A stretch of 64,000 nt of DNA from Acidobacteriota bacterium (GTDB lineage: Bacteria > Acidobacteriota > UBA6911 > RPQK01 > JAJDTT01), in contig OZ253580.1 in NCBI GenBank assembly GCA_965263035.1, positions 1,952,001 to 2,016,000 on the forward strand, given 5' to 3'. The notes under the pieces are model-generated. The model did no database searches. It was not told the origin of the DNA and saw only the letters and a program-made list of their open reading frames with translations. The first letter of the stretch is position 1. Each line of letters begins with the position of its first letter. A program made the position numbers and the translations under genes. Below, in pieces: positions 23,598 through 52,343 of the stretch.

Positions 23598-25055
23598 CTA
23601 CGTCCCCGATTCCGGCCCCACCGGAGCCCAGCGGAAGCACCCGTACTGCGACTCGTAAAGATTGTAGTCTCCGGTACTTCGAGCGATCTCCCACATGCCC
23701 GCGGCCATCTCCCGGCACAGCGGCCCGCGGCTCCCGGCCAGGTTGTGCAGCTCGTGTGGGTCCCGCTCCAAGTCGTAGATCTCGTCTTCATCGAAGGCGT
23801 TGAAGACGTACTTGTGCCGCCCACGCCAGAGGACCCTCTGAGTGTAGGCCATCCGCTGTCCCTGCATCTCGGCGTAGGCTTGTGAATCCCAGCCGGAGCC
23901 GTCTCCCCCCAACAGCGGACGCAGCGAACGGCCGTGGCAGGAAAAGCCCTCTCCCAGCATCAGCTCCATCAGGGTCGGAGCCACGTCCAGCAGGCTGACG
24001 ATCCCGGGGGCCTCCTGCCCCGGTCTCACCCCCGGACCCTTCAGGATCAAAGGCACACGATACGCTTCCTCGAAGGCGGGGACCCCCTTGAGCATCAGGC
24101 GATGGGCGCCCATGTAGTCGCCGTGGTCCGAAAGAAACAGGACCAGCGTATTCTCCGACTGCCCCGTCTCCTCCAAGACCCTCAAGACCCGTCCGACCTG
24201 GTCGTCGATGAGGGAGCAGAAGGCGTAGTAGCAGGCGGTGGCCTCGGCGAAGTCGGACCATTGCATCTGGTCCCAGACCCGTTGCATCCGCCGGTAGATG
24301 CCGGGCCGATGGGCCAGATCATCCTGGAAACTGGGGGGAGGCGCCAGGGCGCGGGCGTCGTAGAGACGCCGGTACTCCCGCGGTACGACGTACGGATCGT
24401 GGGGTCCGACGGTACTCAGGAAGAGGCACCAGGGCTGCTCCTGCCGGGCCGACCCGGTCAGAAAGTCGATCCCGCGAGAGTAGACGTAGTGCTCGCCGGT
24501 GCCCTCCACCGGCTCGTCCACGACGCCGTGCAATAGCAGGTCCCGATACCCGCGGTGGCGAACCATGCCCCTCCGCTCCCAGCGGCGGTCCGATTCGGGA
24601 AGACCCAGACTCCGGCGTCGCTCCAGGTAACCGGTGTTGGGGACCCTCCGGCACCCCACTTCGGCCGCCTCGAAGCTCTCCATCAGCTCATAGGAATCGA
24701 ACCCGAACTGCTCCAGCCGGTTCGAGCGCTCGATGTGCCATTTTCCGAAGTAGCCGGTGCGATACCCGGCCTCCCGCAGCCGCCGGCTCCAGAACGGAAG
24801 CCCCGCCTTCAGATCGGCGCGATAGGGCTCCACCGTATGGGTGCAGTCGACCATGCCGTGGCTGTGGGGCAGGAGCCCCGTCATCAAGCTGGCCCGGCTG
24901 GGCGAGCAGATGGGGTTAGTGGAGTAGCAGCGCAGGAAACGGGTCCCCCGGGCGGCCAGATGGTCCAGGTTGGGGGTCCGGCAGGGAGAGGCAGGACCCA
25001 CCGTGTCGGCACGCTGCTGATCGGTCATCAGCACCAGCAGATTGGGTCGGGGCAA
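23598..25055 (-). CDS. Sulfatase (choline-sulfatase-like)
   Basis: TTG start after AGGAGG; RPNLLVLMTDQQRAD, CSPSRASLMTG, GKWH, SDHGD, YDLERDPHE. Confidence 0.92.
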   Translation of the reverse strand: MPRPNLLVLMTDQQRADTVGPASPCRTPNLDHLAARGTRFLRCYSTNPICSPSRASLMTGLLPHSHGMVDCTHTVEPYRADLKAGLPFWSRRLREAGYRTGYFGKWHIERSNRLEQFGFDSYELMESFEAAEVGCRRVPNTGYLERRRSLGLPESDRRWERRGMVRHRGYRDLLLHGVVDEPVEGTGEHYVYSRGIDFLTGSARQEQPWCLFLSTVGPHDPYVVPREYRRLYDARALAPPPSFQDDLAHRPGIYRRMQRVWDQMQWSDFAEATACYYAFCSLIDDQVGRVLRVLEETGQSENTLVLFLSDHGDYMGAHRLMLKGVPAFEEAYRVPLILKGPGVRPGQEAPGIVSLLDVAPTLMELMLGEGFSCHGRSLRPLLGGDGSGWDSQAYAEMQGQRMAYTQRVLWRGRHKYVFNAFDEDEIYDLERDPHELHNLAGSRGPLCREMAAGMWEIARSTGDYNLYESQYGCFRWAPVGPESGT

Positions 25056-25081
25056 GCGTCCTCCTGTTGCGCAAGCTACCT

Positions 25082-26324
25082 GGGGCTTATATATCTGACT
25101 TGACGTCAGCACACCGTTCCGGCGCCACGTTCGGCCCGCTGGCCCACGTTTCGGCACCCAGGGCAAGAACCCCCGCCCTGAGAATGTTCAGGGCGGCATT
25201 GTGGTCCCTGTCCATTCTGAGATCACAGGCTGAGCAGTGATACGTCTCGCTCCTTCCCGGTCGATTCCGGGCGCCACAACGGTGACAGTCCTGCGATGTG
25301 TATTGTGGGTTGACTTCCACGAACCCCCGACCGGCCCACTCTGCCTTGTACTGGAGTTGATTCCGCAGCAGCCCCCATTGCTGTGAGAGCATCTCTCGAT
25401 TCAGGCCCTTCCGCTTCAGGCCCTTCGTCGACATCCCCTTGATGTCCAACTTCTCCACCGCAATCAGTCCGTTCTTGCGGATGATCGCAGTGGTCTGCCG
25501 GTGACAGGCGTTCCGGTTGCGGACACCCTCCCGGTAACGCATTCCCGCCAACCGGCGGACTCTCTTCTTCCTCCGGTTGGACCCCCGCCGGCATCGGGCA
25601 ATCCTCCTCTGTTGCCGCCGGATCTCCGGCCAGTCCCGAGTGTTGCGTTCGATTCGTTCCCCGGTGGACAAAACCGCCCGCTTGCGGACACCCAAGTCGA
25701 TTCCGACCGCCGAGGCACACTTCGGCAGCGGCTGCTTCTCGACTTCATAGGTCAGATCCACATACACCCGATTCGCCTTGCGCACGATCCTCAATGCTTT
25801 CAGTTCACCCTCGGGCAAGGGTCGGGTGGGGAACATCCGAATCGTCGGAAAGCCCTTGGGACGGATGGCGAATCCCCGGGCCCGCTTCTTCACCATCGTC
25901 GTCTTGGGATCGACGATATCAATGGTCTCCATCCTGGAGATCGGTCGGAACCGGGGATACCCAGGATCCTCTCCCGCCTTGCAGCGCCGGAAAAAGGCCT
26001 GGAAGGCTCGTTCCAGGCGAAACAACATCCCCCTTTCGGCCTTGACGGCAATGGCCCCGAGCCCGGTCGGATCGTTTCTCCTCTGCTGCGTCAAACCCCG
26101 CAACTGGTCATACAGAGTCACGGATTTCTCTTCCTTCTCCCAGGCGTCCTTTCGCTCCTCCAGGGCGGAGTTGTAGAGGCGGTTCAAAACCGATCGGATC
26201 CAATCCAGACGCCGAAGCCCAGCCTTGGACATCTTGGCTCGGCACTGAAATATTGTATGATACGTCAATACAGGTATGTTAACACATCTTAGTGACAATC
26301 TATCAAGTTAGATATTTAAGCCCC
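25082..26324 (-). mobile_element. TIR-bounded non-autonomous element carrying tnpB
   Basis: GGGGCTTATATATCTGACTTGA (25082-25103) and TCAAGTTAGATATTTAAGCCCC (26303-26324) form an inverted repeat at 20/22. Confidence 0.75.
25087..26298 (-). CDS. tnpB: RNA-guided endonuclease TnpB
   Basis: RLYNSALEER, GYPRF, RuvC VGIDLG / IAVEKL / DRDHNAALNI, Zn ribbon CHRC...CSAC. No tnpA adjacent. Start uncertain. Confidence 0.95.
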   Translation of the reverse strand: MSLRCVNIPVLTYHTIFQCRAKMSKAGLRRLDWIRSVLNRLYNSALEERKDAWEKEEKSVTLYDQLRGLTQQRRNDPTGLGAIAVKAERGMLFRLERAFQAFFRRCKAGEDPGYPRFRPISRMETIDIVDPKTTMVKKRARGFAIRPKGFPTIRMFPTRPLPEGELKALRIVRKANRVYVDLTYEVEKQPLPKCASAVGIDLGVRKRAVLSTGERIERNTRDWPEIRRQQRRIARCRRGSNRRKKRVRRLAGMRYREGVRNRNACHRQTTAIIRKNGLIAVEKLDIKGMSTKGLKRKGLNREMLSQQWGLLRNQLQYKAEWAGRGFVEVNPQYTSQDCHRCGARNRPGRSETYHCSACDLRMDRDHNAALNILRAGVLALGAETWASGPNVAPERCADVKSDI

Positions 26325-26475
26325 TACCACACTATTTAATTGGGCTGTCCCTGTGTTCCAGCCCTCGACCCAGTCTACCAAGCCTCGACCTTCGGCTTGG
26401 CATTCGGTAGAAAAGTCCTGTCCGAGCGTCCCCTTTTGGGATCGTGAATTCCTTTCGCTTTCGTGAGGAGGCAGA

Positions 26476-43016: not shown

Positions 43017-44781
43017 CCCGGATATCTCATCAGAAAGATTGATAAAGGCCGAGTTTTCTGCTATAAGTGTTGTGTAATCAATAACTTACAAAGCAGAAGG
43101 GACGCGACCTTATGACCGCAGAGTGTACCAGAACAAAGCTCAGATTTCAGGGCCTGGACGGACGGGACGTCGTGGGCCGGTTCGACGGCGGCGAGATCAC
43201 CTCCGACGCCGGTGGCGTGCTCCTGCGCGAAGTGGAGCAGCGGACCCGGATTCTGGGTCGTCTGAGCGAATGCTTCACCGACTATCGAGACCCGGATCGA
43301 GTCGAACACCCGGTGGAGGCGTTGATCAAACAGCGGGTGCTGGGGCTGTGCCTGGGCTACGAGGACCTCAACGACCACGACGAGTTGTGCCGGGACCGGC
43401 TCCTGGCGCTACTGTGCGACCGGGACGACCTGACGGGGGAGTTCCGGCGCGTGGAGTCGGATCGAGGCAAACCGCTGGCAGGCAAGAGCACCCTGAACCG
43501 ACTGGAGCGGACTCCGTTGGAGGGACCGGAGGGCGCGTACAAGAAGATCGTGGCCGACCCGGCGGGGATGGACGAGCTGCTGCTGGAGGTGTTTGTGGAA
43601 GCGCATCCGGAGCCCCCGGAGGAGGTGATCCTGGATGTAGACGCCACGGACGATCCGCTGCATGGGAAGCAGGAGGGACGGTTCTTCCACGGCTATTACA
43701 AACGCTACTGCTACCTGCCGCTGTACGTCTTCTGTGGGGAACATCTGTTGTGTGCGCGGCTGCGCACGGCGGATCGAGGCGCGGCCCACGGGGTGGTGGC
43801 GGAGTTGGAACCAATCGTGAGGCGGCTGCGTGAAGCGTGGCCCCAGGTCCGGATCCTGGTCCGCGGGGACAGTGGATTCTCCAACGACGAGTTGATGGTC
43901 TGGTGCGAGAAGGAAGGGATCGATTACGTCCTGGGGTTGGCGCAGAACGATCGGCTGAAGCGGAGGATCGCGACCCGGATGGAGACCGTCCGGCAGTTGC
44001 AGCGGGCGATCGGGAAGGCGGTGCGGCAGTTCCAGGAACTACGCTACCAGACGCGGGACACGTGGTCGTGCGAGCGTCGGGTGGTGGCGAAGGTGGAGCA
44101 CCTGCCCCGGGGAAAGAACCCGCGATTCATCGTGACTTCGGTCCCGGTCCAGGAATGCGATGGGCGCAGATTGTACGAGGAGGTCTACTGCGCGCGGGGA
44201 GACATGGAGAATCGGATAAAGGAACAGCAGCTGGGTCTGTTTGCGGACCGCACGTCGACCCGGAAGCTGGCGGGGAATCAACTGCGGTTGTATTTCTCGG
44301 CGTTCGCCTACGTGATGATGGAGACGTTGCGACGGGTGGGACTGGCGGGGACGAAGCTGGCGCGGGCGCAGAGCTGGACCCTGCGGGTGAGATTGCTGAA
44401 GATCGGGGCACAGGTCCGAATCACCAGCCGCAAGGTCTGGTTGTCCTTTTCCGAGAGCTATCCGTATGCGGCGCTGTTGAGGACGGCTCTGACGCAAGTG
44501 CAAGCCCTCCCGCTTCGCTGTTAGCAACGGATGGAAAGAACTCTTTGGACGATGGCGACTTGGGAGTCCCCAGGATGGACTGCGCCCCGGAGTGGGCACC
44601 GGGTCGAGAGTCGTCGCTCAGAAGCGCAGGATGGGCGTCAAAAGGCTCTGGAGAAGCGCTGCATCTGGCCGTTGGTCGGCACGTTCGAGCACGAAAACTG
44701 CCTCTTGAACTCGTATGGATAAAGAATCACCCAGACGACGGTTCAACTTCCGTTTATTGTTCTACTGATGAGAAATGCAGG
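43017..44781 (+). mobile_element. IS1380-family element (second type)
   Basis: TIRs CCCGGATATCTCATCAG/CTGATGAGAAATGCAGG; CTAG duplication at the stop codon of the upstream gene. Confidence 0.9.
43112..44524 (+). CDS. IS1380-family transposase
   Basis: FDGGEITSDAG, LAGKSTLNRLE, ILDVDATDDPLHG, VRGDSGF, YCARGDMENRIKEQQ. Confidence 0.95.
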   Translation: MTAECTRTKLRFQGLDGRDVVGRFDGGEITSDAGGVLLREVEQRTRILGRLSECFTDYRDPDRVEHPVEALIKQRVLGLCLGYEDLNDHDELCRDRLLALLCDRDDLTGEFRRVESDRGKPLAGKSTLNRLERTPLEGPEGAYKKIVADPAGMDELLLEVFVEAHPEPPEEVILDVDATDDPLHGKQEGRFFHGYYKRYCYLPLYVFCGEHLLCARLRTADRGAAHGVVAELEPIVRRLREAWPQVRILVRGDSGFSNDELMVWCEKEGIDYVLGLAQNDRLKRRIATRMETVRQLQRAIGKAVRQFQELRYQTRDTWSCERRVVAKVEHLPRGKNPRFIVTSVPVQECDGRRLYEEVYCARGDMENRIKEQQLGLFADRTSTRKLAGNQLRLYFSAFAYVMMETLRRVGLAGTKLARAQSWTLRVRLLKIGAQVRITSRKVWLSFSESYPYAALLRTALTQVQALPLRC

Positions 44782-47809: not shown

Positions 47810-49580
47810 GAGGCTGTCCGAGAACGGGGCTGTCACCGAAGCTCCTTAAAATCAGGGCATCTGATCATCAGGAGAATGTTGGATGCCCCCGCGATTCAAA
47901 GCCTACCCGAAAGACTACTACCAGAGTCAGCTGTTTCCGGCCAACGTGTTCGACCTCTTGCCGGAGGATCACGAATGTTTCCTCTATCAGGAACTGTTCG
48001 AGCAACTGGACACGTCGGAAGTGGAGGCCCAGTACAGCGACCGGGGCCAGCGCGCCTACGCGCCGCGTCAGATCGTGTCGATCCTGATCTACGCCTACAG
48101 CCGCGGCGTGTTCAGCTCCCGGCAGATCGAGCAGCGCTGCCGGGAGGATCTGGGGTTCATGTACATCGCGGGGAGGAACTGCCCGAACTTCCGGGTGTTG
48201 AGCGATTTCCGGAAGGACCACGGGGAATTCTTCCGGTCCTGCTTCAAGCAGACGGTGCAACTGGCGATGGGGCTGGGGCTGGTGAGTTTGGGCCACGTGA
48301 GCCTGGACGGGTCCAAGTTCAAGGCGAACAGCTCGAAGCACAAGGCGATGAGTTACGGACGGCTGAAGGAGAAGGAGCAGGAATTGTGCGAGGAGATCGA
48401 AGCCTTGACCCGGCAGGCGGACCGCTGCGACGAGGAAGAGGATCGGGTCTACCAGGAGCGGACCGGGTATGAGCTGCCCGATGACCTGCGCGACAAGAAG
48501 CAGCGGTTGAAGAAGGTCCGGGAGATGAAGCAGCTGCTGGAAGCGCGGGAGCAGGAGCTTCGACCGGGTCAGGCGATCGAGGACAAGAAGCAGATCAGCT
48601 TTGCGGACCCCGAGGCGCGGATCATGAAGCAAAAAGGGGACTTCGAGTACGCGTACAACGCACAGATCAGCGTGGACGGCAAGTCGCAGGTGATCGTGGG
48701 TCAGCACGTGAGCCAGCAGGCGAACGATTCCCAGGAAGTGGCTCCAGCCTTGGATGAGGTGGAGGAGACGAGCGGTCGGTTGCCGGAGAAGCTGAGTTTG
48801 GACAACGGGTACTACTCGGGGAAGAACCTGCAGGAGACGTCGGATCGGAAGGTGGAAGCCTACATCGCGACGGACCGGGGAGAGAAGCGGGGGAAGGGGG
48901 ACCTGGACGCGAGCAAGCGTTACTTGGTGAAAGCGGACTTTCGTTACGACGAGGAGCAGGACGGCTTTCATTGTCCCGGTGGCCAACTGCTGAGGTTGAA
49001 GACCACCCGCGGCACGGGACAGCGGGTGTATCAGGGGGACATCGATGAGTGCCGATCCTGTGCCTACTATCGTCGTTGCTGCCGGTCGAAGTCAGGGGCG
49101 GCGCGCACGATCACGAGCGACGGGAAGGAGCCGTTGCGACGGGCGATGAACGAGCGGATGTCGAAACCGGAGAGCCAGGCGATCTACGCGCGTCGCAAGA
49201 CGATCGTGGAGCCGGTGTTCGGGCAGATCAAGAACTCGGGATTTCGGGGATTCGGGCTGCGGGGCAAGGCGAAAGTGGCGGGGGAGTTCTCGCTGGTCTG
49301 CGTGGCACACAATCTCAAAAAGATCATGCTTGCGGCTCTGCGGGGAGAGGTGTGTCCGGAGTTCGGGAAGCGAGCGGCCTGGGCGTAAGAAAGGGGCGGA
49401 TAAGGGCGGATGAAGTCAAAAATCGGCCTCTGTAGCCTCTTTTCGCGTCGGAATTAGAGCAATCCATCGGTTCCCTCGGCTTCGGAGGCCAGGATTCGAG
49501 GGTCTTCGGAGCCTTGGACCATTGCCCCTGAGCATGGTTATGGGTGAAGGTCGCTCAATGCCGAATTCTCGGACAGGCTC
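47810..49580 (+). mobile_element. IS1182-family element, complete
   Basis: TIRs GAGGCTGTCCGAGAA/TTCTCGGACAGGCTC, CTAG duplication. Confidence 0.93.
47883..49388 (+). CDS. IS1182-family transposase
   Basis: LIYAYSRGVFSSRQIE, SLDGSKFKAN, DPEARIM, LDNGYYS, RKTIVEPVFGQIK. Confidence 0.95.
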   Translation: MPPRFKAYPKDYYQSQLFPANVFDLLPEDHECFLYQELFEQLDTSEVEAQYSDRGQRAYAPRQIVSILIYAYSRGVFSSRQIEQRCREDLGFMYIAGRNCPNFRVLSDFRKDHGEFFRSCFKQTVQLAMGLGLVSLGHVSLDGSKFKANSSKHKAMSYGRLKEKEQELCEEIEALTRQADRCDEEEDRVYQERTGYELPDDLRDKKQRLKKVREMKQLLEAREQELRPGQAIEDKKQISFADPEARIMKQKGDFEYAYNAQISVDGKSQVIVGQHVSQQANDSQEVAPALDEVEETSGRLPEKLSLDNGYYSGKNLQETSDRKVEAYIATDRGEKRGKGDLDASKRYLVKADFRYDEEQDGFHCPGGQLLRLKTTRGTGQRVYQGDIDECRSCAYYRRCCRSKSGAARTITSDGKEPLRRAMNERMSKPESQAIYARRKTIVEPVFGQIKNSGFRGFGLRGKAKVAGEFSLVCVAHNLKKIMLAALRGEVCPEFGKRAAWA

Positions 49581-49918: not shown

Positions 49919-49940
49919 TCAAGTCAAATATATAATTCCC
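49919..49940 (+). repeat. Orphan copy of the tnpB-element TIR, containing TATAAT 60 bp upstream of CBASS
   Basis: TCAAGTCAAATATATAATTCCC vs TCAAGTCAGATATATAAGCCCC (19/22). Confidence 0.6.
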
Positions 49941-49995: not shown

Positions 49996-51147
49996 ATGAC
50001 TCAGGACGTAAGCCGGTACATTCGGCCTCCCGTCGAACGCGAATTGTGGGGCCGGGCGGCAGGCCGTTGCGAGTTTTGGGGTTGCAACCGGCTCCTCTAC
50101 AAGTCGCCGGTCACTCAGGAACGGGTCAATCTTGCAGAAAAGGCGCACATCTACTCCTTTTCTGAGCACGGACCGCGCGGCTGGGGCCCGTTTGTTAAGA
50201 ACAAGAAGGGACTGAACGACATCTCAAACTTGATGCTGGTTTGCCACGACTGCCACAAAAAGATCGATCAGGACGTTGACGGTGCCCGCTACAAAGCGAG
50301 CCTCTTGATTGATTGGAAACGCCAGCACGAAGAGCGTGTGCGCATCGTCACCGGGACCAGTCCGAACAGGAAATCCCACGTCATTCTCTATGGCGGAAAG
50401 ATCGGCGAAGAGAATTCGCCGCTACAGTTCGAACGTGCGATTGCCGCCATGTTCCCGGAGTGGTTTCCCGCAGATGAGCGGCCAGTCATCCTCTCGATGA
50501 GTTCAGAGCATGAGGACACGGAAGAACTGTTCTGGCAGAGCGAAACGGCCCATTTGCGTGCCGCGTTCGAGCGCCACGTCGTGCGTCGAATCAACGAAGC
50601 CAACCCCAACCATTTTTCCGTCTTCGCGTTTGCCAATCAGCCGCTTCTCATCCTTCTAGGTGTACTGCTCACTGACAAAGTCCCGGCTGAACTGTATCAG
50701 CTGCACCGGGAACCCGCCGGATGGTGCTGGCAGCCCGACGGGCCTGAGGGGTTCTCCTTCCGCACGGTCAGGCCGCAGCAGCAACATGGGACACCGGCTC
50801 TTGTCATTTCACTCAGCGCCCGCATTGATTCTGACCGCATCACGTCCATTCTTGGGCCGGCGACGGCTATCTGGGAACTGACAGTCGATGAATGCCACAA
50901 CGACTTTCTCAAGTCTCGCGCCCAGCTTGCGGCTTTTCGTGAAGCCGCAAGGAAGCTCATTGTTGAGATTGCGGACGCTCACGGCCAGCGCACACCGCTC
51001 AACATCTTCCCGGCCATGCCCGTTGCCTGTGCTGTCGAGCTGGGACGCATACGCATGCCGAAAGCCGACATGCCCTGGATTGTTTTCGATCAGAACAACA
51101 AGCTTGGGGGATTTATCAAGGCACTGGAGATAGGAGGAACATCGTGA
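49996..51147 (+). CDS. cap5: CBASS effector HNH-SAVED (Cap5-like)
   Basis: LWGRAAGRCEFWGC, EKAHI, NLMLVCHDCHKKID (HNH/Zn); SAVED-like FAFANQPLLILLG, YQLHREP, IFPAMPVACAVELGR. Confidence 0.88.
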   Translation: MTQDVSRYIRPPVERELWGRAAGRCEFWGCNRLLYKSPVTQERVNLAEKAHIYSFSEHGPRGWGPFVKNKKGLNDISNLMLVCHDCHKKIDQDVDGARYKASLLIDWKRQHEERVRIVTGTSPNRKSHVILYGGKIGEENSPLQFERAIAAMFPEWFPADERPVILSMSSEHEDTEELFWQSETAHLRAAFERHVVRRINEANPNHFSVFAFANQPLLILLGVLLTDKVPAELYQLHREPAGWCWQPDGPEGFSFRTVRPQQQHGTPALVISLSARIDSDRITSILGPATAIWELTVDECHNDFLKSRAQLAAFREAARKLIVEIADAHGQRTPLNIFPAMPVACAVELGRIRMPKADMPWIVFDQNNKLGGFIKALEIGGTS

Positions 51148-52343
51148 GTACTACGACTGGACACGGGATCCTTGAAGAGATTGCTAAGACGATAGAAATA
51201 CCGGATTCCGCCTATGAAACCGCGGAAAGGCGTTATAGAGACCTCGGCAATTGGTTCGCGCAACCTAGTTCGCTTTGCGGCCGCTTCGATCCGCACATCC
51301 ACGCGCAGGGCTCGTTTCGCTTAGGCACCGTCATCCGCCCGCTGGGGGATGCCGAAGCCTATGATCTCGACCTCTCCTGTAAGCTCAGGCAGGGCATCAG
51401 CAAGACCACTCAGACCCAGGAAGATGTCAAAATGCTCGTTGGGGTCGATGTGAAAAGCTACCGTAGGGCTCGCCAAATCGACAAACCTGTGCAGAATAAG
51501 CATCGCTGCTGGCGCCTGGAATATGCCGACGATCTCAGCTTCCATATCGACATCGTTCCGTGCATTCCAGAAGAGTACTCCCGACAGCGCCTGATTGAAG
51601 ACGCCATCATTAAGGCTCAATCATCAGATGAGGCTCTGGCGAAGACCATTGCCGACCTAAGCGTCAACATTACGGACGACCGCCTTCCCGGATACAGGAT
51701 ACTCACCACCGACTGGCTGCTTAGCAATCCGGAAGGTTACGCGCGCTGGTTTGAATCGCGGATGAGTTTGGCCAGGACGATGCTTGAAGCCCTCAAACGT
51801 CAGTACAAGGCTGCCGAGATCGAAGACATCCCTGCATTCAAGTGGAAGACACCGCTCCAGCGCTGTGTACAAATGTTCAAGCGCCATCGCGACATCATGT
51901 TCGCCGACAAGCCGGACGTGAAACCGATCTCGATCATCATCACGACTCTCGCCGGGCGCGCCTATCAAGGGGAAACCGATCTCTGGGAAGCCGCACGCAA
52001 TGTCCTCGACAAGATGGGGGGACTTGTCAATCCGCAAGCGCCGCGCGTTCCGAATCCGGTGAACCCGGCGGAGGATTTTGCCGATAAGTGGAGCACGCAG
52101 GAAGGGCGTGCCAACCGGCTCGAAGAGAACTTCCACGCATGGCTGACCCAGGCCGGATCGGACTTCCAGGCGCTGGCCTCCTCTCGGGATACTGAATTTA
52201 TATCCGAACTGGCCCACCAGAAACTGGACGCCCGCCTCAAAGCCGCTGATTTACGCTCCATAGCCAGCCTTGCGGCACCAATCGGCTTCGCGCCGAAGAC
52301 GCACCACATCGTCGAAAAGCCCGCCCGGCCTTGGATGCGATGA
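51144..52343 (+). CDS. CD-NTase (cGAS/DncV-like, SMODS nucleotidyltransferase)
   Basis: QGSFRLGTVIRP...YDLDL, HIDIVP, SNPEGYARWF, KRHRD, PISIIITTL, NPVNPAEDFADKW. Confidence 0.92.
   Translation: MSTTTGHGILEEIAKTIEIPDSAYETAERRYRDLGNWFAQPSSLCGRFDPHIHAQGSFRLGTVIRPLGDAEAYDLDLSCKLRQGISKTTQTQEDVKMLVGVDVKSYRRARQIDKPVQNKHRCWRLEYADDLSFHIDIVPCIPEEYSRQRLIEDAIIKAQSSDEALAKTIADLSVNITDDRLPGYRILTTDWLLSNPEGYARWFESRMSLARTMLEALKRQYKAAEIEDIPAFKWKTPLQRCVQMFKRHRDIMFADKPDVKPISIIITTLAGRAYQGETDLWEAARNVLDKMGGLVNPQAPRVPNPVNPAEDFADKWSTQEGRANRLEENFHAWLTQAGSDFQALASSRDTEFISELAHQKLDARLKAADLRSIASLAAPIGFAPKTHHIVEKPARPWMR

Follow-up and report, generated by a model that had tools for sequence, protein, structure and literature searches.

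A tnpB cassette bounded by terminal inverted repeats

The window, by which we mean the complete 64,000-nt stretch of Acidobacteriota DNA analysed here, harbors on its minus strand a compact element in which tnpB is the sole gene enclosed by two inverted repeats (Table 1). Several features read from the letters in a preliminary description held up: the arms at 25082-25103 and 26303-26324 are complementary at 20 of 22 positions, no second gene and in particular no Y1 (HUH) TnpA gene lies between them, and the TAA stop codon of tnpB (25087-25089) falls within the 3' repeat. Comparison with relatives places the probable start of tnpB at TTG 26268. Residues are numbered from an ATG that is also present, at 26232. 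A sigma-70 scan of the minus strand found no tnpB promoter. At this one locus the repeat exceeds chance expectation by a modest margin: when the 3.5-kb region was shuffled 30 times, two shuffles reached 20/22 (self-overlapping palindromes included). Its proof is its recurrence in other copies.

Table 1 Features of the tnpB element (coordinates are those of the 64,000-nt window)
Feature	Position	Strand	Remarks
Whole element	25082..26324	minus	1243 bp, tnpB-only, non-autonomous; BLAST matches of other copies stop here
Left terminal inverted repeat	26303..26324	minus	IS1595-type
Right terminal inverted repeat	25082..25103	minus	contains the tnpB stop and the predicted pseudoknot 3' strand (25082-25087)
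Left flank	26325..26333	minus	probably a decayed target duplication; motif position is A instead of the family's G
Predicted guide source	25062..25081	minus	host DNA past the right end, start 25081 or 25080; from the pseudoknot register and published TnpB RNA structure
Predicted omegaRNA scaffold core	25082..25190	minus	overlaps tnpB 3' end
Predicted omegaRNA stem	25175-25180 with 25159-25164	minus	
Predicted omegaRNA pseudoknot	25168-25173 with 25082-25087	minus	loop strand 25168-25173
tnpB open frame	25087..26298	minus	403 aa from first TTG; NF040570 202.8 bits (cut-off 100)
RuvC-I Asp, D179	25696..25698	minus	by alignment to ISDra2 TnpB
RuvC-II Glu, E260	25453..25455	minus	by alignment to ISDra2 TnpB; canonical position
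RuvC-III Asp, D343	25204..25206	minus	by alignment to ISDra2 TnpB
Arg67	26032..26034	minus	aligned to ISDra2 Q80; candidate reader of G

Sister copies and empty alleles

The boundaries were fixed by comparison with other copies and empty sites, the check that the preliminary description had suggested. BLAST searches of the source genome (G000, 6.2 Mb) found the same ends around three further copies with unrelated flanks, and this genome holds 11 related tnpB loci in all. Together with 27 copies from other genomes, titled as Acidobacteriota MAGs, these form a clade set of 38; clade matches were present in five of eight same-genus genomes and in none of the 32 others searched. Both ends and an 8-bp duplication (at least 7/8 matching) were found in 27 of the 38 copies, and the duplication is exact in 24. 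Of the 11 excluded copies, five lack an end; the other six, to which the window copy belongs, have both ends but a duplication that matches at no more than 6/8. The duplications of the sister copies are located outside the repeats. In four same-genus genomes the allele is empty and all 1243 bp are missing, both repeats included, and contigs from public RNA runs terminate at 25081/25082 and at 26324.

In the window copy itself the 8-bp flank positions match at just 3/8, and an orthologous insertion in another genome (locus L172 in G007) is in the same state. Since G007 shares this insertion, flanks included, the window copy is probably an old resident whose duplication has decayed. The imperfect pair TACCT/TACCA, put forward earlier as a possible target duplication, is not the footprint of the family: a 5-bp footprint is ruled out by the 8-bp duplications of the sister copies.

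These comparisons also bear on one of two origins suggested in the preliminary description, in which the loop of a palindrome had received an IS1341-like element directly behind TTGAT, the element ended at TCAA and the repeat itself was the guide. In the window subfamily both TTGAT and TCAA are indeed found immediately inside the repeats. The empty palindrome, however, was not found in G000 and occurred in none of nine genomes of the genus, searched by exact match to a degenerate pattern, and the empty alleles contain neither repeat. Other subfamilies have repeats without TTGA or TCAA, of the four full window-subfamily copies in G000 one has TTGAC instead, and TTGA sits at the same place in the repeats of tnpB-free IS1595 elements (L154 and L159). 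With the duplications lying outside the repeats and an RNA loop that pairs with the repeat tip instead of TCAA, we rejected this origin, which we now regard as barely credible.

Other sites were observed as well. Loci L018 and L028 retain intact repeats (22/22 and 20/22) between unmatched flanks, which suggests recombination between copies or adjacent rearrangements. At one chromosomal site, G000:C1:1410204-1410852 and L025 represent two subfamilies in two genomes, through repeated use of the site or replacement by conversion. Within the window, a solo IS1595-type end lies at 49919-49940 (minus strand), with 3 mismatches in 22 to the element repeat and no partner end found; it has a G outside the 8-bp position and is situated 55 bp upstream of a defence operon (49996 on).

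IS1595 transposases as probable movers of tnpB

The IS1595 family has a known end consensus, makes 8-bp duplications and includes non-autonomous cassettes with passenger genes. The preliminary description had proposed looking in the genome for the repeat and for a transposase enclosed by it, and this search was productive: G000 contains 17 matches to the IS1595 transposase profile PF12762, and PF12762 elements in G000 and related genomes bear ends of the same type. A scan of G000 for repeat pairs with duplications likewise showed that tnpB elements and IS1595 elements share an end type, and repeats with an 8-bp duplication were present at 26 of 57 IS1595 loci examined. One tnpB subfamily has a left end 23/24 identical to the commonest IS1595 end. 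For the repeat of the window subfamily, the best IS1595 matches reach 15-16/22 and come from other genera, none close being present in G000.

Direct genomic evidence of IS1595 moving tnpB is provided by composites in a second genome, G880. Each composite unites an IS1595 element and the tnpB cassette with a captured gene fragment of 470 bp, spans 3.7 kb (e.g. L540:989-4689) and has two nested left ends; its transposase matches NF033547 at 189 bits. Among 43 tnpB loci sampled there, out of 49 scored matches and 415 candidates, at least 12 composites and at least 13 tnpB-only cassettes have exact outer duplications. Additional cases were found in a SAR202-titled genome (G423) and a relative, and a profile search of the G424 family gave matches in 16 of 38 genomes (G424 contains a Rhodothermaceae-titled locus). 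At 30 IS1595 loci in other G424-family genomes, no pair of terminal inverted repeats with a duplication was found. The other origin suggested at first, that TnpB resides in a DDE transposon with IS1595-type terminal repeats, is borne out by the ends, the 8-bp duplications of the sister copies, the transposases of G000, the G880 composites and the predicted repeat-tip pseudoknot described below. As judged from these sequences, the window element is non-autonomous and IS1595-type, and was likely moved by a DDE transposase encoded elsewhere in the genome.

An 8.6-kb IS1595-type element with an exact 8-bp duplication and cargo other than tnpB is also present in the source genome (G000:C1:42443-51073).

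The TnpB protein and its relatives

All three RuvC acidic residues, reported as intact at the outset, are in place in the alignment to ISDra2 TnpB. E260 sits 56 residues ahead of the zinc-finger residue C316, and the C4 zinc finger is intact, its four cysteines aligning with those of ISDra2 TnpB. Across all 21 aligned relatives neither the catalytic residues nor these cysteines vary. The dN/dS values of the window tnpB are 0.13-0.22 against all eight relatives compared, which indicates that the gene is under purifying selection.

When 401 genomes of the phylum were queried with a second-tier protein, the clade was found only in G000 and G005. Further relatives that are 45-58% identical are known as proteins, scans of metagenomes, plasmids and viruses found only distant TnpBs (at most 47%), and three plasmid tnpB loci had no IS1595 neighbour. 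The TnpB of G880 is 31% identical to that of the window.

In trees built with FastTree and rooted at the midpoint, for which 71 of 272 rows were kept, the TnpBs with IS1595 ends form three deep groups separate from all sampled IS605-hairpin TnpBs (support 1.0); the end-type labels were assigned automatically, with errors, four of which were corrected by eye. The tree is compatible with one capture or with several, and either may have occurred. Related TnpBs at L043, L281 and L310 (G423 and G435) lie in another repeat, 17 bp long and starting GAGACG, with 6-7-bp duplications, and an upstream AGACG could pair with the tip of this repeat. A nested SAR202 pair with a different repeat and 6-7-bp duplications thus indicates that partners switched within the lineage. 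More distant TnpBs at L057, L211, L212, L214 and L219 have a third end type (CTGAGACACTACC-like); L057 has a matching inverted repeat upstream, and this end type is perhaps a published DDE branch.

A predicted omegaRNA that reaches the repeat tip

The omegaRNA-like stems pointed out in the 3' region proved to be real and covarying. An alignment of 18 3' regions was scored for three stems and a fourth helix, and 98.9% of 468 cells were paired; 11 of 26 pairs had changed on both sides, a count that none of 500 shuffles reached. The structure was drawn from the same sequences, which favours it over slid controls, and kinship inflates the covariation counts. The fourth helix, a predicted pseudoknot, forms between the first stem's loop and the six terminal bases of the repeat. 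Its cells are paired at 96.3% in the 18 sequences and two of its six pairs have changed on both sides. The compensatory changes, by which a tip AUUCCC faces a loop GGGAAU, are confined to one subfamily (L025 and L036); a U-U mismatch occurs in one subfamily. In the distant elements an upstream stretch starting GGG pairs at five or six of the last six bases in 17 of 17 cases, a count without a chance control. A single-strand fold gave z = -2.15, and such a fold cannot represent a pseudoknot; Rfam returned no meaningful match. The right-end hairpin of the IS605 type is absent from the element, in agreement with the initial reading, whereas IS605-type relatives do have one.

Contigs from RNA libraries cover the predicted scaffold. 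In two runs the contig depth was in the thousands over 25044-25226 versus 39-92 over most of tnpB, a depth that pools all related copies and is therefore no guide to the relative abundance of the parts of a gene.

In ISDra2 the pseudoknot spans positions -6 to -2 ahead of the guide (PMC10097598), and the scaffold of IS607 TnpB includes one flank base (PMC10711439). If this register applies, the scaffold would finish on the first base of the duplication and the guide would start from the second. We infer that the guide is host DNA beyond the right end, that is, the duplication and the right flank.

At the window locus (25055-25081), the start codon of a sulfatase gene lies 26 bp downstream of the element end and the predicted guide overlaps its ribosome-binding site, so tnpB transcripts could run on into the sulfatase gene.

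A guanine outside the left duplication

A base that played no part in element detection is nearly constant in the flanks. Just outside the left duplication, G is present in 68 of 69 tnpB-bearing elements when three sets are pooled. In the window clade it is found in 26 of 27 copies (12 of 27 at the mirrored position on the right), followed by A in 27/27 and then by A or T in 27/27; counted as independent sites the figure is 25 of 26, one site being common to two genomes with different subfamilies. In G880 the G is present in 25/25 (mirror 9/25) and the next base is not fixed (T in 12/25), and in other lineages it is present in 17/17 (mirror 5/17), this last set being the 17 of 35 loci that passed the end test, oriented by tnpB. 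Four of the six excluded two-ended copies also have the G; the two without it are the window copy and its orthologue, which have A there.

Elements without tnpB differ. Among 28 tnpB-free IS1595 elements, 26 of them from the 57 loci above and two from the scan for repeat pairs, G occurs at 13/28 left and 8/28 right ends, and the window clade is significantly enriched by comparison (Fisher p 1.8e-7). In G880, solo IS1595 elements with the same left end have the G in two of five cases with an exact duplication and in 5 of 12 overall, one misfiled composite being excluded, against which the tnpB-bearing elements give Fisher p 0.002 (exact duplication, control n=5) and 8e-5 (overall). In other G424-family IS1595 elements the left-end G was seen in 3/17, scored by eye from 26 loci with duplications unchecked.

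Could TnpB then be a passive passenger, with the G arising from the target preference of a particular transposase or from unequal ends? IS1595 targets are AT-rich with some outside G (21/56 ends), many copies are internally deleted with their ends retained, and a search for the cognate transposase of the window subfamily found none, all of which would suit a passenger. In G880, however, the same transposase and left end go with G in 12/12 elements with tnpB versus 2/5 without, and the bias persists in subfamilies whose ends are equal (4/4 in the L023 group and 2/2 in L025 and L036). A passive role also fits poorly with the purifying selection that acts on tnpB and with an RNA loop whose sequence follows that of the repeat tip, and we therefore consider it improbable.

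The flanking G is more likely a one-base target motif, as the distribution of flanking bases and the protein alignment suggest. Guanine is often read by arginine. In ISDra2 TnpB, Q80 contacts motif position -2 and K76 position -3 (PMC10097598); the window protein has Arg67 at Q80 and Val63 at K76, and K76 and F77 are not conserved. The Q80 column holds Arg in 46 of 48 TnpBs bound by terminal inverted repeats versus 1 of 37 labelled as IS605-hairpin. Five TnpBs of another end type also have Arg in this column, and the Arg/Gln contrast amounts to one split in the tree.

A proposed homing model for the cassette

Collectively, we propose that the element is a tnpB cassette likely moved by IS1595 and that its TnpB is probably a homing nuclease that would take its guide from the flank and cut the empty allele at a G-preceded 8-bp target. 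In the proposed sequence of events, an IS1595 transposase would act in trans on the ends of the cassette. The RNA scaffold would end at the repeat tip or one base past it, and every insertion would rewrite the guide. The motif would consist of the outer G (position -2) plus the base that opens the duplication (position -1), which makes GA in the window clade, with Arg67 as the putative reader of the G. A filled right junction, with C at the motif place, would be spared, and a filled left junction would match 7-8 guide bases only. TnpB would then cut empty sister or incoming alleles, and repair from the filled allele would allow insertions at G sites to persist and become fixed. Homing by the cutting of empty alleles is the published model for IS605 TnpB (PMC10690162), and in IS200/IS605 elements TnpB cutting of empty alleles reportedly fixes insertions (PMC11870625). 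The purifying selection on tnpB agrees with such a model. The window copy, being old and lacking the G, may no longer home.

A simple model of excision and restoration yields a steady G share of 0.55-0.68 versus the 68/69 observed. The observed share lies far above that of the model, so the mechanism is incomplete and calls for some additional drive or purge. The gap could close if insertions are driven to fixation among recombining relatives or chromosome copies, or if TnpB steers or blocks the transposase in cis. This second possibility can be taken as an explanation in its own right: with the same ends and guide, TnpB would act before or at transposition, steering insertion to G or sitting on the left junction (G plus 7-8 matching bases) and blocking excision, with the result that the element would go on moving until it comes to lie beside a G. 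It accounts for the G share that simple retention does not reach and, by anatomy, the filled left junction shows G followed by the first guide bases. The tnpB-free IS1595 copies of the same genomes, however, are unbiased and are kept at non-G sites, which would require a strictly cis effect; moreover, contact between TnpB and the transposase is hypothetical, and empty-allele cutting as reported for IS200/IS605 (PMC11870625) could suffice. We thus regard action before or at transposition as unlikely, although less so than a passive role, and favour homing at empty alleles.

On a broader scale, we tentatively raise the idea, rather unlikely as it stands, that IS1595-borne TnpBs may be widespread, compact one-base-motif nucleases that decide the residence of DDE transposons, acting in cis on insertion or excision beyond the cutting of empty alleles. 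If true, this would represent a natural first step towards DDE transposition under the control of RNA and protein, and an editor almost free of a motif.

Other features of the window

A CBASS-like operon occupies 49996-52343 and continues to about 55171. It encodes an HNH-SAVED effector and a DncV-like nucleotidyltransferase, with two further ORFs (212 and 711 aa) that have no Pfam match. The window also contains two DDE transposase genes, a DUF772/DDE_Tnp_1_6 gene at 47883-49388, which we take to be IS1182-like, and a DDE_Tnp_1_4 gene at 43112-44524, presumably IS1380-like.

Relation to known systems

Capture of prokaryotic TnpB by DDE transposons is already published, and IS1595 is unnamed as a partner in the text covered. 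Six DDE-linked TnpB branches (DDE-1 to DDE-6) have been described, with inverted repeats and with solo tnpB genes moved in trans (Altae-Tran et al. 2023, PMC10691335). The present elements resemble them in their inverted repeats, in a tnpB 3' end near the element end and in solo tnpB genes between ends like those of transposase elements; the main text of that paper does not mention IS1595, which appears in its supplement PDF only as a profile name. One line of the same supplement describes a motif, TA, lying 8 bp upstream of the DDE-5 end, where the window clade has G and then A(A/T). The place of this TA is taken by A(A/T) in 27/27 copies of the window clade, and in G880 T is found there in 12/25. 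The DDE partners named in a 2026 review are ISL2, IS630 and IS1031 (PMC13565253), and a literature search by title and abstract start, mainly of open-access papers, found no link between TnpB and IS1595 among the papers listed. One of the six published branches may already be this lineage.

The elements share with the IS1595 family 22-24-bp repeats starting GGG(G/A)(A/C)TTAT, AT-rich 8-bp duplications and non-autonomous members with no transposase of their own. They differ from IS1595 members without tnpB in that the passenger TnpB is under purifying selection, the stop codon and the predicted RNA end lie within the right repeat and the flanking G is oriented. With IS200/IS605 and IS1341 TnpBs, exemplified by ISDra2 (PMC10097598), they have in common the RuvC D-E-D residues, the zinc finger, an RNA overlapping the 3' end, a pseudoknot at the end and a predicted guide from the right flank. 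Unlike IS200/IS605 elements, they have no Y1 gene inside and no end hairpins, and they do have repeats and duplications, where IS200/IS605 elements insert behind a fixed motif of 4-5 bases and leave their target unduplicated. The 5-base motif TTGAT of ISDra2 is apparently replaced here by one G (Q80 changed to Arg; K76 and F77 lost), and if the motif is indeed a single G, these nucleases of ~390 aa would be able to reach far more targets than ISDra2 TnpB.

The preliminary description had likened the element to the capture of Fanzors by transposons. The comparison is a fair one, since Fanzors in eukaryotic DDE transposons are also nucleases rehoused in repeat-bounded elements; capture by DDE elements as such had, however, already been published in general terms. 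As in Fanzor and IS607 TnpB (PMC10711439), fixed bases of the flank or duplication may enter the scaffold and the left duplication enters the motif. The host here is bacterial and the pseudoknot, which Fanzor1 lacks, is retained. A criterion for Fanzor is a RuvC-II Glu moved next to the zinc finger (PMC13565253), whereas that of the window protein is at the canonical position. The duplications also differ from short, fixed TA duplications in being long (8 bp) and variable.

Pairing of prokaryotic TnpB with DDE transposases is rare, and rigid target recognition has been suggested as the limit (PMC10711439, PMC13565253). The IS1595-tnpB family would offer a direct test of this question, with loose 8-bp targets, an RNA that tracks the repeat tip, a predicted one-base motif and a candidate reader for it. 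The excess of G, found in 68 of 69 elements where a share of about 60% would be expected, suggests that some additional step is at work when such elements become fixed.
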